64,000 nt of DNA from Carcharhinus amblyrhynchos (lineage: Eukaryota). Each line of letters starts with the position of its first letter. Position 1 is the first letter of the stretch. Below are positions 13,366 through 56,825 of the stretch, piece after piece. The position numbers were made by a program, and so were the translations under genes. The notes beneath the pieces are model-generated. The model was given only the letters and a program-made list of their open reading frames with translations, searched no databases and was not told the origin of the DNA. The stretch lies in the NCBI GenBank assembly GCA_965287045.1, contig OZ336885.1, positions 13,330,001 to 13,394,000 on the forward strand, read 5' to 3'.

Positions 13366-14329
13366 AGTGTGAAATATGTTCAGTCATTGCAATGTTTCAG
13401 TAGTGAAATGTGGTATATTAAACTGTACCTTCATGTTCTCATCTATTTGCAACTGCAGTTATCATGTTTGAATTTCCTGTGAAGCATGTTCAAAAAGTCA
13501 CAGACAATGGCCTTCCTTTGTCACCATTCAACCCAACCCAGAAAAGATTCACATTGTCCTGTTCTCTACTTTACATGTAGTTTTCAAAGAATTGAAAAAT
13601 ATTGCTCCAGTTTTAAATTCTGTCAGAAGACTTCTTTTGGCTGCAACATAAGGGAAAAATATTATGGAGGTAATTTTAACACAGTGCAATTGTGCAAGAC
13701 TGGTAATATATTGGCAATCCATTTTATAGTTCAGCTGATTTTTATTTTCACTTACTTAATAAAAATAAACATGAAGAGATATCAAAAGGCCAGTCAATTG
13801 GCTATCAGCCGAATCACTCTATTGCACAAAGTCAATTATCCCTCATGTATTTCAAATTAATTTTGTCTCCGAACAGAGTGCAGAGGCCATTAATGCAAAG
13901 AAAATGCCTGTTTTGTTATTAGGAACAATTCATACTTCGAAATTTAAATGTAAAGTTAGATTGCTTGTAGTTTAGAGTGCATCATCCAGCAGTGTGACCT
14001 AATTACCAAGTGAGAAAATTTGCTAATGAGTAACCAGAGGCACTTGATGACCTCTTTGGATGGAAAATGTCAAATAAGAAATATTTGTACACTCTTTTCT
14101 CAGAAAGCAAATTAATGTTTGGATTGAAAGAGTATGTTGTATATTTAAAGTTAGCTTAATGAAACAGTCATTTTCTTAAAAGTAACGCATGCTTTAACAA
14201 GACATAAAACCCTATTTCAAGTTAGCATAAACGATGATAGTCAGGGCTAATGGGGGCAGGAAGGAGTCTAGTTGATTGCAATTTTCAGATCAGGATCTAA
14301 TGCCCTCATTGGGCCAGATTGAAAATATT

Positions 14330-15468
14330 GGGTGCAATTCTCCCATCCTGCTGCGTTGCATTTGTAGCACAACGGGCCAGGAGACTTGAGCGGAAGCCAC
14401 TACAAAGGCTCCCTGCTGGATGCCACGGCTTCCATGTGTCACCCTGCGTTGGATTTCTGGTGCCGTCAGCTCCGTGCCAGAAATCGGTGCGGAGTTGTAT
14501 AATGTATTCAAATGAGTATTTGAATATAATTTGCATCCTATTAGCCGGCCTGAGACTGAAACTTCCGGATCCGGTATCGCTACCACCTCCCCCTCCCCCC
14601 CCCCCACCCCGCTTCCAGGAGTTGTTCATTCCACTGGAGCTTAATGTAGCTCCTCTTGTGGGGGGGCTAACAGCCCGACCCAGCTGGAATGAATGGGGGT
14701 TAATTGAGGCCTCCCCCCCACCGCCCCCCGCCGAGAGTCGGGCACCAGTGGTTACCCCTTGGGCATTGCCACCTTGACAGTGCCAGCCTGGGCTCCCTGT
14801 CACCACCCAAGGGGCAGTCAATGCTTAGGCAGCATCTTGGCATTGCCCATTAAGCATCAGGTAGTGCCAAGAGGCAGGGCCTAGTGAGGAGTGGAATCTG
14901 ATGGGGAGGGGGGTGATCAGTGGGTTGAGGGTCCAGCTGCAAACCGAGCTGAGTTACAGAAGGAAGCCAGTGATCGGGGCTGGCCATCGGGGCGGGGGGA
15001 TGGATCAGCCTTCTGAGGGGGGCCGGGACTGCAGGGGGGATATTGGGACTGTTTTGGGAGGAGGATTGGGAGATCGGGGTTGTGCGGGGGTGGGATCCTC
15101 AAGGCAAGCTGGGGCAGGGGTGTTTGAGACTGGCCTGGGCATATCTGGGGAGCCAGTGATTGGGCTGTTGGGGGCAGGGGGGAGGATTGCACCGTGATGT
15201 GGGGATCGCGGGGTTGGCCAGCGATCAGGCTAATCAGTGATCAGAAGGTCGACAGTGAGTATGAGGCCCACTAAGAACTATGTTGACAGCCTCGTGAGCA
15301 GGAATAGGACTCAGCCCCTGATTTTTAGACTGATTCACACTAGTGCACTCCGTGGTGCACAGAGTGTGGGAGATTCATTTTGAAACTTCCACTGAAAAAA
15401 ACCAGTAGGATTTACTCCAGTTTCTACACAAATTCGACACTTAGAATTTTTTTGGGAGAATCGCCCCC
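14330..15468. mobile_element. Non-autonomous PIF/Harbinger-like DNA transposon
   Basis: 16-bp TIRs GGGTGCAATTCTCCCA / TGGGAGAATCGCCCCC (14/16); 3-bp TSD ATT at 14327-14329 and 15469-15471; GC-rich interior. Confidence 0.8.
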
Positions 15469-15702
15469 ATTACCTTGAGGCTTGGCTGAGGAGCAGTAGT
15501 GGCTTCCTGGGCAATGGAAGCCTATTGGGAACTGGAAGAGGCCCACCAAGTTTAACTTTATCTTTTTTTAGGTTTCTTTTTGGGTCAAGCGAAGCTGGGG
15601 TGTGCCTCTGGATTCTACAAGGAAATCTTCCATCTCTGCTGTTCCAACATCTTCTCTTCAAACTGCAACACCAGGTTAAAGTCCAACAGGTTCATTTGGT
15701 AG

Positions 15703-15738
15703 CACAAGCTTTTTGGAGTGCTGCTCCTTCATCAGGTG
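15703..15738 (-). ncRNA. Minimal hammerhead ribozyme motif, core mutated
   Basis: Reverse strand reads cac-CTGATGA-a-ggagcagcactcc-AAAAAGCTT-gtg; GAAA lost. Confidence 0.65.
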
Positions 15739-15760
15739 AGTCATGCCAAGGGGGCAGGGC

Positions 15761-15792
15761 CTGATGAAGGAGAAGCGCTCCGAAAGCTCATA
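15761..15792 (+). ncRNA. Minimal hammerhead ribozyme motif, intact core, stem I lost
   Basis: CTGATGA-a-GGAG aagcg CTCC-GAAA-GCTC; palindromic AGCT in place of helix III. Confidence 0.75.
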
Positions 15793-16048
15793 CTACCAAA
15801 TAAACCTGTTGGACTTTAACCTGATGTAGTGAGACTACTTACTGTGCCCACCTCAGCCTAACGCCGGCATCTCCACATCCAAACTGCAATTACTTGGATA
15901 TACATTTAAGGTGTCATTGTCAACAGAGCTATGAAGTAAGAATTGAATGTTGAAATTAGGCTGATAGCTCTTTGTTGCGCAGCAATGTACAACACTCCAG
16001 GCCTCTATGGATAGGGGTACAAAGCTCCCTGTGGAAGATGGGTCACAA

Positions 16049-16552
16049 TGTGGAGATGCTGGCATTGGATTGGGGCAAACACAGTAAGAAGTCTCACAAC
16101 ACCAGGTTAAAGTCCAACAGGTTTATTTGGTAACACAAGCCATAAGCTTTCGGAGTGCTGCCCCTTCATCAGATGAGTGAAAGTTCTGTTCACAAACAGG
16201 GCATATAAAGACAAACTCAATTTACAAAATAATGGTTGGTATGCGATTCATTACAAGTAATCGAGTCTTAAAGGCACAGACAATGTGAGTGGAGAGAGGG
16301 TTAAGCACAGATTAAAGAGATGTGTATTGTCTCCAGCCAGGACAGTTAGTGAAATTTTGCAAGCCCAGGCAAGTCGTGGGTGTTACAGATGTGACATGAT
16401 CCCAAAATCCCGGTTGAGGCCATTCTCATGTGTGCAGAACTTGGCTATCAGTCTCTGCTCAGCGACTCTGCATTGTCATGTATCATGAAGGCCACCTTAG
16501 AGAATGCTTACCCGAAGATCAGAGGCCGAAGGCCCGTGACTGCTGAAGTGTT
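16049..16552 (-). mobile_element. Penelope-like element 3' end (GIY-YIG C-terminus plus pLTR)
   Basis: Reverse strand HFSSHGPSASDLRVSIL*GGLHDT..RVAEQRLIAKFCTHENGLNRD; same terminus as the 55535 copy. Confidence 0.85.
16141..16175 (-). ncRNA. Minimal hammerhead ribozyme motif, best-preserved copy
   Basis: Reverse strand cat-CTGATGA-a-ggggcagcactcc-GAAAGCTT-atg; stems I and II can pair. Confidence 0.75.
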
Positions 16553-19134: not shown

Positions 19135-19203
19135 TGTAAAAAGTCACAACACCAGGAGACTTCTTACTGTGTATACCCCAGTCCAATGCCGGCATCTCCA
19201 CAT
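19135..19203. mobile_element. 69-bp Penelope pLTR micro-insertion with inverted junction
   Basis: AAGTCACAACACCAG (minus) joined to GAGACTTCTTACTGTG...GGCATCTCCACAT (plus); 12-bp TSD CATGACTCATAC (19123-19134, 19204-19215). Confidence 0.85.
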
Positions 19204-19300
19204 CATGACTCATACCGGCCACAGTGGAAACTTTCAAAAATTCCCTTACATGAAATAAAGCTTAAAAATTCACTGACCAAATGGAGGCCTTACAATTTTG

Positions 19301-53633: not shown

Positions 53634-53813
53634 ATGTTCTGAGGACCTGGGTTCAAATATCACTACAATAAATGTTGGAATTTGAATTCAATGAAAAATA
53701 TCTGGAATTAAGGATCTACTGATGACCATGAAATCATTTGTCAATTGCCGGAAAAACCCATCTGATTCGCTAATATCCTTTCGGGAAGGAAGTCTGCTGT
53801 CCTTGCCTGTTTG

Positions 53814-55535
53814 AAGTCTCTCAACACCAGGTTAAAGTCCAACAGGTTTATTTGGTGGCAAAAGGCACTAGCTTTTGGAGCGCTGCTGCTTCGTCGGTTA
53901 AGTGGGAGTTCTGTTCACAAACAGGGCATATAAAGACACAACACAATTTACAAAATAATGGTTGGAATGCGAGTCTTTACAGGTAATTCAGTCTTAAAGG
54001 TACAGACAATGTGAGTAAAAGAGGGTTAAGCACAGGTTAAAAAGAGATGTGTATTGTCTCCAGCCAGGACAGGTATGAGATTTGGCAAGCTGTGGGGGTT
54101 GCAGATAATGTGACATGAACCTAAGATCCCGGTTGAGGCCGTCCTCCTGTGCAGAACTTGGCTATCAGTTTCTGCTCAGCAACTCTGCGTTGTTGTGTGT
54201 CGTGAAGGCCACCTTGGAAAACACTTACCCAAAGATCAGAGGCCAAATGCCCATGACCGCTGAAGTGTTCCCCAACAGGAAGAGCGCACTCTTGCCTAGT
54301 GATTGTTGAATGGTGTTCATTCATCTGTTTGTCGTAGCGTCTGCATGGTCTCCCCAATGTACCGTGCCTCAGGACATCCTTTCCTGCAGCATATCAAGTA
54401 GGCAATTTTGGCCGAGTTGCAAGAGTATGTATCGCGTACCTGGTGGATGGTGTTCTCACATGAGATGATGGCATCCGTGTCGATGATCTGCATGTCTTGC
54501 AGATGTTGCTGTGGCAGGGTTGTGTGGTGTTGTGGTCACCGTTCTCCTGAAGGCTGAGTGGTATGCTGCAGACAATGATTTGTTTGAAGGCAAGAAGTGG
54601 GGGTGTGGGGATGGCCTTGGCAAGATGTTCAACATGTTATTGATGAAGATGAACCTCTCACCAAGACCATCCTACATCCCCACTTCTTGCCTTCAAACAA
54701 CCGCACAACCTCAAACAGACCACAGGTGCAGCAAACTACCCGGCCTTCAGGAAAATAGTGACTACAACACCACACAATCCTGCCACAGCAACATTTGCAA
54801 GATGTGCCAGATCATCAACATGGATGCCATCATCTCATGCGAGAACACCATCCACCAGGTACGCGGTACATACTCTTGCAGTGTTGTCTACCTGATTATG
54901 CTGCAGGTAAGGATGTCCCGAGGCATGGTACATTGGGGAGACCATGCAGACACTACAACAATGGATGAATGAACACCGCTCGACAATCGCCAGACGAGTG
55001 TTCTCTTCCTGTTGGGGAACACTTCAGCGGTCACAGGCATTCAGCTTCTGATCTTTGGGTAAGCGTTCTCCAAGGTGGCCTTCATGAAACACAACAACGC
55101 AGAGTCACTGAGCAGAGACTGATTGCCAAGTTCCGCACACATGAGGATGGCCTCAACCGGGATCTTGGGTTCATGTCACACTATCTGCAACCCCCGTGAC
55201 TTGCCTGGACTTGCAAAATCTCACTAACTGTCCTGGCTGGAGACAATACACATCTCTTTAACCTGTGCTTAATGCTCTCTCCACTCACGTTGTCTGTCTG
55301 TACCTTTATAAGACTTGATTACCTGTAAAGACTTGTATTCCAACCATTATTTTGTAAATTGAGTTTGTGTCTTTTATATGCCTTGTTTGTGAACAGAACT
55401 CCCACTTGCCTGATGAAGGAGCATCACTCCAAAAACTAGTGGTGTTTGCTACCAAATAAACCTGTTGGACTTTAACCTGGTGTTATGAGACTTCTTTCTG
55501 TGTTTACCCAAATCCAATGCCGGCATCCCCACATC
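53814..55535. mobile_element. Inverted pair of 5'-truncated Penelope-like elements (left arm minus, right arm plus)
   Basis: Both arms carry GIY-YIG remnants (CxxxxCKxC, YSCSVVYLI, PVGEHFSGH, EQRLIAKFRTHEDGLNRD); junction near 54630-54650; mutated hammerheads at about 53866-53900 and 55407-55441. Confidence 0.9.
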
Positions 55536-56825
55536 GTGTTTATCTGGTCTGGCATACAGATCCAAATCCACAGCAATGTGGTTTATTCTCATCTGCCCTT
55601 GGGCAACTAGAGATAAGCAGTAAATGCTGGCCGGCCAGCCAGCAGCTCTCACGTCCCACAAATGAATTTAATAAAAAATTTCAATGATTCTTATTTCCCT
55701 GCCTAGGTGAGAATGAATCTTTGGATGGCTGCAGGATGTGTCACTTCACCCGGAGACCATCTCCCTCCTGCATTTGGCTCTAATAGTGCTCGAGGCATCA
55801 TTTCTTTGCTGACCAGACAGAACAGCTGTCTGTAATTTTGATTTTGCAGGGAAGCCTGTAACTTGATCTTCCCCTGTCATCCTCCCCATGGCAACTAGGT
55901 AGAAATGGTAATTAGGTACTCTTGACCTCTAGTCTCTTTCATCTTGGATGTAATTGGGCATTTAACAGCACAACTGTTAAAATCTGATACTAGTGTACCT
56001 TTCTAGGACTTTTTGGGAGACTTGGGCTTGGATTTTTGCTTTCAAGTGCTGCATCACGTCAGCAGGGAGAAAGAACTATGAACGGTGGGAGCTTCTTTCT
56101 TGCAGAATGGATGCAGGGTGGTGCTTGTTCCAGTGCCCCCAAATGCAGTTTAGAGCTGGGCTTAAGGCAGTCCAGTGCTGCAGCGGATTGTGTAACAGGC
56201 CCACCTTGGTTTTCTGGGACTTCACCCCAGTTGCTTTTAAAAACATTAGGTCATGGAGTCTAGATCCCACATACTCATCAGCCCTTGCCATGCATGCTAA
56301 CTTCATAACCATTGACCACAATGGTAGTTCCATTGTGAATGGAGATTTTTTTTGACGTAGTGATATTGAGTCATATAGGGGGGAATTTTTCTGTTCCTCC
56401 CACTATGGGAATCGTAGCGGGCAGGGAACAATTTAGTATTTAGTAAAGGAGAACCAAAGAAGTGATGAAAGGAAAAGAGAATATGAATACAAGCTAGTGG
56501 GAAACATAAAATGGATTATAAAAGCCTGTTTAGGTGTGTGGAAAAGAAAAGGTTAGCAAGGACAAATATGGTTCCCTTACAGGTGGAGATAGGAGAATTT
56601 ATAACAGAGAATAGGGTGGAGAAACGAGCCCATTGTGTTGTGCATCTTGCAGAAAATCTTTCAGAAATACCAGCGATTTAAGTGACTTGTGAAAATGAGA
56701 AATTGAAATAAATTAGTATTAATAAGGAGGTAGTACTCAAAATTAATTTGTTTGAAGATTGATAAATCCTCTGGACCAGATGAGCTTCATCCCAGAGTGT
56801 TGAAGGAGGTGATTTTTCAGATAAC

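Follow-up and report, generated by a model that had tools for sequence, protein, structure and literature searches.

How inverted ends form in Penelope-like elements (PLEs) was described as undefined (PMC8557442), and self-priming on an antisense template was proposed earlier to account for them (PMC3846280). In vitro, a Penelope-like protein that is predicted to be a dimer cuts and extends both target strands, uses uncleaved RNA and starts synthesis at two sites that bound the tail (PMC11167929). Pairs of hammerhead motifs on opposite strands, 100-700 bp apart, have already been noted in Schistosoma (PMC4209133). The Neptune/Nematis layout and its CX2-5CxxC linker motif are defined in PMC8557442. 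The locus analysed here lies in a stretch of 64,000 nucleotides of Carcharhinus amblyrhynchos DNA (the window) and is a short insertion of an abundant PLE of the Neptune/Nematis type. It is an inert scar, an ordinary dead insertion of known shape, and is valuable as one data point in a large insertion series.

The insertion (Table 1) consists of 211 bp between two exact 10-bp TSD copies, at the coordinates given in a preliminary description of this DNA. The last three nucleotides of the left TSD (CAA) also fit the element, a microhomology. Insertion as one unit with a TSD and the identification of Penelope pLTR ends are likewise supported, a parent element with an RT ORF having been found elsewhere in the genome, and the interval 15659-15889 is indeed free of coding sequence. 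The arms are unequal: 73 nt on the left (76 nt with the 3-nt CAA overlap with the TSD) and 120 nt on the right. The inner end of the left arm is exactly at -6, the inferred RNA 5' end discussed below, and its outer end lies about 50 nt before the terminus, which makes the arm about 15 nt shorter than the family mode of 34-38; the right arm ends in CCACATC. Inverted matches between the arms cover 15668-15712/15783-15827 (89% identity) and 15711-15736/15760-15785 (88%). The locus folds as a hairpin of about 68 bp (-117.2 kcal/mol, z=-12.0), close to the ~70 bp first suggested, and 0 of 200 shuffles are as stable. A separation of 20 nt between the two copies was also described; a short spacer does separate them, but its non-element part measures 18 nt (15742-15759) and the cores are 25 nt apart. 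With neither promoter nor ORF nor working ribozyme, the insertion most likely does nothing.

Table 1. Features of the insertion and related sequences in the window
Feature	Position	Strand	Remarks
Local copy of filler source repeat, candidate bridging template	14855..14887	+	0.87 kb upstream
Left TSD CAAACTGCAA	15659..15668	+	Exact copy of right TSD
Inverted, tail-less arm	15669..15741	-	Spans element positions -6 to about +68, counted from hammerhead C3
Decayed minimal hammerhead core	15706..15735	-	G12 replaced by A and an A inserted; retains 3-bp helix I strands
18-nt filler from another GC-rich repeat family	15742..15759	+	
Sense arm	15760..15879	+	Hammerhead core, remaining 5' leader, ~35-nt tail
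Hammerhead core	15761..15789	+	CUGAUGA/GAAA/UC intact, without helix I; nominal cut after C15789
Right TSD CAAACTGCAA	15880..15889	+	Exact copy of left TSD
Separate, longer copy of element 3' end	16044..16552	-	
Long (1.7 kb) version of inverted arrangement	53813..55536		Decayed GIY-YIG coding sequence

Both arms had been credited with a CTGATGA-stem II-GAAAGCTH motif, which is correct for the right copy and not for the left. The right core at 15761-15789 reads CTGATGA-stem II-GAAAGCTC, its RNA form ending in GAAAGCUC, whereas the left copy, on the minus strand, reads AAAAAGCTT and carries the G12 change and the extra A. G12 is catalytically required in hammerheads; its replacement by A is CpG decay and is present in 28 of 58 arms. 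In the right copy the 5' strand of helix I is replaced by filler and the 3' strand is CpG-decayed, so that the pair next to the cut site cannot form. Neither copy thus combines G12 with a helix I beside the cut site, the former being absent on the left and the latter on the right. The notion of a working ribozyme pair is abandoned, since both copies are damaged and lie on opposite strands; nor can the pair act as a dimeric hammerhead, because one transcript carries a motif together with its antisense and folds as a hairpin. The suggested search with hammerhead models returned no Rfam match at E<=10 for these minimal motifs at the locus. The 5' flank of the hammerhead, read in antisense at window positions 15733-15741, gives CAG/GTGAGT, a perfect splice donor, and such insertions inside host introns could in principle offer cryptic splice donors.

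At the level of the family the hammerhead motif is real. In 30 copies selected because their core is intact, pairing holds in 87% of cells, and stem II has 25 double-sided changes against 9.1 in shuffled data, an excess inflated by relatedness. All double-sided changes in these copies fall in stem II, helix I varying on one side only. The claim of a minimal-hammerhead family therefore stands for these 30 copies, with a conserved core and a covarying stem II. Between subtypes stem II is strongly variable with pairing kept, and the locus subtype is without 6-7 nt after the cut site. At the ribozyme cut site cDNA ends form no peak: the interval +27 to +32 holds 6 of 74 sense ends, against about 4.5 from the local density, and genome-wide there are 7 matches at +28/29 against 3 at +32/33, small counts with an incomplete control set. 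An end peak at this position, suggested by one locus (L133) and two copies from random blocks, is unsupported by these family counts, which in any case do not measure cleavage.

An intact ORF of 893 aa was found in a copy of the element elsewhere in the genome (L193:1299-3980, G000:C46), with an RVT_1 match at E=1e-9. Its GIY-YIG region, VYLIRCKKGCPEAWYIGET, with two cysteines between GIY and YIG, was read by eye; Pfam returned no GIY-YIG match on this ORF. The RT-EN linker, CHSNLCKTC (C-x4-C-x2-C), fits the CX2-5CxxC definition, and the Neptune/Nematis assignment is made by ORF layout and this linker motif. In the full element the ATG directly follows the terminus CCACATC on the hammerhead strand, so that the right arm of the locus is the 5' leader of the element. 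L193 is a partial tandem with an inverted pLTR upstream, and its two direct pLTRs differ in stem II. The family may have been active recently. Genome-wide, the 29-nt tail has 4,881 exact matches, and the 64-kb window contains four other copies of the same element end, one of them the 1.7-kb version in Table 1. A tiny member of the series occupies 19156-19204 of the window, with an inverted arm of ~13 nt, a sense arm of 49 nt and a TSD of ~12 nt.

The usual shape of such insertions was established from the first 90 of the 4,881 tail matches, all on contig C1, which gave 85 independent insertions once 5 duplicates were dropped; the exact-tail filter favours subtypes younger than that of the locus. 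There are 74 short and 11 long insertions. An adjacent inverted arm is present in 53 of the 74 short ones, and 42 of these 53 have a TSD of 7-16 nt, mostly 12-14 nt. The preliminary description had proposed to look for other TSD-flanked inverted pLTR pairs, and the shape clearly recurs. The inverted arm starts 23-42 nt before the terminus in 46 of the 53 (mode 34-38). An inverted arm, a tail of about 35 nt and a TSD make up the known, usual shape, and the locus itself combines an inverted pLTR, a one-sided tail of 30-40 nt and a TSD. The base next to the terminus is A in 71 of the 85 insertions, and AT is found in 54; this matches the AUG of the RNA and suggests short pairing between target and RNA. 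When the arms of 41 tail-selected insertions were compared by eye, subtypes mostly agreed, with differing markers in L112, L126 and L128. About 20 insertions in a random 600 kb of the genome were used qualitatively.

Several other arrangements were observed. In L184, L186, L188, L190 and L192, all from loci selected for holding the ORF start, the pLTR end is followed by the ATG and ~100-130 nt of ORF and then by a jump upstream of the hammerhead, ending in a new terminus, as a recurring template jump or deletion. Small insertions with the inverted tail on the other side (tail-first) are represented by B046 (the L046-L050 block), L185, L186, L189 and L190, and the sense piece of B046 starts exactly at the cut site. 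L094 and L145 occupy the same position of another repeat with different structures, and are independent hits of one site, whereas L162, L172 and L178, also at one position of another repeat, look like a single insertion multiplied with its host repeat. L097-L100 and the region G000:C1 0.3-4.8 Mb are segmental duplications with identical insertions.

The filler at the centre of the locus, together with the adjacent CCTGATG, matches other copies of its source repeat (L195, L197) exactly over 23-24 nt, and this repeat and the beginning of the right arm have 7-8 nt in common. From these matches, the filler was evidently captured from the other repeat through the 7-8-nt microhomology. The local copy at 14855-14887 is similar to the filler and also to the end of the left arm (CATCAGGT) and the beginning of the right arm; it is the best non-self match in the window (score 13/25), about four differences away, and, being found after the fact, is proposed as a candidate bridging template. 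The GC-rich repeat at about 14329-15470 of the window, with short terminal inverted repeats by eye, belongs to the filler source family and is highly repeated in the sequence runs compared. At least 8 of the 50 centres listed repeat at least 8 nt of nearby element sequence, as judged by eye. Polymerase-theta end joining and RT template switching typically leave fillers of this kind.

The insertion is of considerable age and has probably become fixed. Its left junction is covered by contigs of organism A and both junctions by contigs of organism B, with 1-3% differences, so that the insertion is shared and old. The empty orthologous site that had been suggested as a check was not found among the best-supported joints in 4 of 22 runs. 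Across the entire unit with its centre, the locus copy shows 80-85% identity to the closest look-alikes.

The position at which sense arms stop bears on the nature of the template. In the tail-selected sample the stop rate is 0.4% per nt near the terminus, rises to 2.5% at -20 to 0 relative to C3 and drops to about 0.15% per nt upstream of -50. Among arms with the locus core, 45 stop at -1 to -9, 5 at -10 to -45 (one ambiguous) and 41 run on, as counted by hand in the first 100 of 12,309 arms (91 after removal of duplicates). Joints from 15739-15743 dominate the contigs compared (9 of 15 among those listed). The A at -6 stands in an initiator-like context, and 30 nt upstream of it is a conserved TATA-like sequence, TTTATATG. 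A sharp stop some 6 nt upstream of the core and 30 nt below a TATA-like box points to the RNA 5' end, and the stop zone is likely to represent it. Hand counts of the extra base before -6 (before ACTCAC) gave 52 G, 17 A and 9 T in 78 stops, against 0 G at the same position among 19 run-on copies; with the cases that the partner arm could explain removed, they become about 21/13/9 (G/A/T). The extra G is suggestive and would fit cap copying, and also snap-back synthesis. Many arms of the youngest subtype stop at -9 to -25 instead of -6, and no single base therefore marks the boundary in every subtype. D. virilis Penelope has a TATA-less internal promoter (PMC2377424), which shows that these elements do not all share one promoter type.

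Two origins had initially been envisaged, a one-off product of reverse transcription or a MITE-like family, and neither accounts for the locus. All 40 look-alikes scored among 4,689 candidates match over almost their entire length, 39 lie elsewhere and show 80-85% identity, and genome-wide there are 1,012 exact back-to-back pairs within 30 nt against 0 in the control; the shape recurs, hence the locus is not a one-off. Its junction, searched with up to 3 mismatches, recurs at only four further places, each in an unrelated repeat that lacks Penelope arms, and this uniqueness among Penelope-type sequences excludes a MITE family, as do the different centres in 29 of the 30 loci viewed. Copies sharing both internal junction and ends, as in a MITE, are thus not what the search recovered. 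The copying, as one unit, of a non-autonomous palindromic element made up of ribozymes only is accordingly very improbable. Such copying could produce the 1,012 exact short pairs and the recurrence of some minimal centres (8 of 50 listed); but, besides the unique junction, the centres, outer ends and arm lengths grade continuously into palindromes of kilobase size, the only centre shared among the loci viewed is found in different subtypes with different outer ends (L007 and L008), no promoter is included and both motifs at the locus are dead.

The choice is then between one template and two, and it was addressed by comparing alleles between arms in 30 loci chosen for likeness to the locus, the locus itself included. 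In 20 insertions of one subtype the stem II A/G variant differs between arms in 8, whereas arm differences at other A columns amount to 22/479 (4.6%; p=1.5e-6); a second marker, A/T, is mismatched in 4 of 20 pairs. None of the 13 arms of a second subtype carries the G allele (0/13 vs 17/43, p=0.005), and the A/G difference is thus a source variant and not a mutation hot spot. This mismatch argues for two RNA templates over fold-back, in which one cDNA stops, self-primes and is copied back towards its start before being joined to the second target end. Arms made in that way would be identical at birth and would diverge later, leaving the mismatch unexplained unless later conversion were common; gene conversion from other copies could be a later source of such differences. 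Moreover, L028 has a perfectly symmetric centre and yet its arms differ at two subtype markers, and synthesis of the inverted arm begins at a second, fixed site, in agreement with an RT start that has been measured (PMC11167929). Fold-back, for which self-priming was proposed for such palindromes (PMC3846280), therefore seems unlikely, even though it would readily give the near-symmetric junctions that occur in excess (arm ends within 10 nt in 21 of 52 pairs vs 8.9 by permutation, with 0 of 20,000 permutations as high), the minimal hairpin-like centres of GTGAGTCAC type seen by eye in 8 of the first 50 pairs, and the general agreement of subtype markers between arms. These markers are discordant in 3 of 30 cases vs 11.8 expected at random, which means that the templates are no random sample of all copies, as would be expected if subtypes were active at different times. 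The coupling of arm ends, which also affects junctions as distant from the RNA end as +30 to +65, is not predicted by independent cDNAs, so that the model needs either later palindrome trimming or lock-step synthesis in addition; the coupling could stem from trimming at the centre of perfect palindromes. Two cDNAs made from both pLTR copies of one long RNA, a tandem or circular transcript, would explain the partial marker concordance; partial tandems exist, the two pLTRs of L193 are unlike in stem II, and circular templates have been proposed (PMC4209133). However, for an arm made from the downstream pLTR the RNA would not end at -6, which is where both arms of short pairs do stop, and the cut site shows no end peak (7 vs 3 raw matches), which makes this origin improbable.

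The preferred reading, to which we give a probability of roughly two in three, is that two reverse-transcription reactions on two RNAs each ran off upstream of the core and that the products were joined head to head via captured filler. The observations that it brings together are family membership, the TSD, two fixed starts 35 nt apart, the sharp stop zone, the allele mismatch between arms, the origin of the filler and the loss of both ribozymes. The element protein would nick both target strands 10-15 nt apart, one nick priming at the terminus next to the ORF ATG and the other ~35 nt upstream, and these offset priming sites would leave the tail on one side only. In vitro, the start sites are the same on both strands (PMC11167929), which counts against strand-specific priming. 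Each cDNA would run off the RNA 5' end just upstream of the hammerhead core. Since no more than ~125 nt would separate the priming sites from the 5' end of an uncleaved transcript, the leader alone would be copied in most reactions, and priming on the downstream pLTR of a tandem transcript would give long copies. The two free cDNA ends would be joined by microhomology-mediated repair or template switching, in this case via a piece of another repeat.

More tentatively, and at somewhat less than even odds, Penelope-like integration as a whole could be a two-RNA machine, in which a protein dimer holds two transcripts, one primed at each nick, and in most events only a capped leader of ~125 nt is copied, twice over. 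The palindromic AGCU of the hammerhead may pair the two RNAs. If this model is true, the hallmark palindromes directly record where the transcript starts and that templates were mixed. Full-text searches of freely accessible main articles found no statement of such a model. Mixed arm alleles, the sharp stop zone and foreign filler provide a direct test of fold-back against two-template priming, and the intact ORF in the genome makes an experimental test possible.

In LINE-1 twin priming, a second target nick primes a second cDNA, leading to an inversion with a TSD, and the two cDNAs copy adjacent parts of one RNA. Here, in contrast, the cDNAs copy the same stretch, so that two templates are needed, unlike in LINE-1. 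Insertions of EN+ PLEs (Pen2a_Av, PMC3846280; scheme in PMC8557442; D. virilis Penelope, PMC2377424) share with those described here an inverted 5'-truncated copy, a one-sided tail, a variable TSD and a pLTR with TATA and Inr-like motifs. Compared with these, the locus is a minimal form without ORF sequence, and the present family has ends piled at the inferred RNA start and arms often derived from different source variants. The minimal type I hammerheads of metazoan PLEs (PMC4209133) have the same core, the bulged A before stem II, G10.1-C11.1 and the palindromic AGCU in place of helix III. They differ from the locus in that both of its copies are broken; helix I is only 3 bp in the locus subtype, against 6 bp in younger subtypes. 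Non-LTR retrozymes (10.64898/2026.07.22.740005) are, like the locus, non-coding, hammerhead-bearing and PLE-derived, but form head-to-tail tandems with a ribozyme in each unit, whereas the locus is a single, unique head-to-head unit. The closest biochemical parallel is PAc, a Poseidon element of Anolis (PMC11167929), in which two start sites ~85 and 120 nt downstream of the core bound the tail, as here, both strands are extended and uncleaved RNA is used. Indeed, uncleaved RNA is its main substrate, in agreement with the absence of an end peak at the cut site in the present family. In contrast to PAc, the ORF here starts after the tail and not inside stem II, the linker is of the Neptune/Nematis type, and A or AT at the terminus suggests target-RNA pairing, which PMC11167929 did not find.
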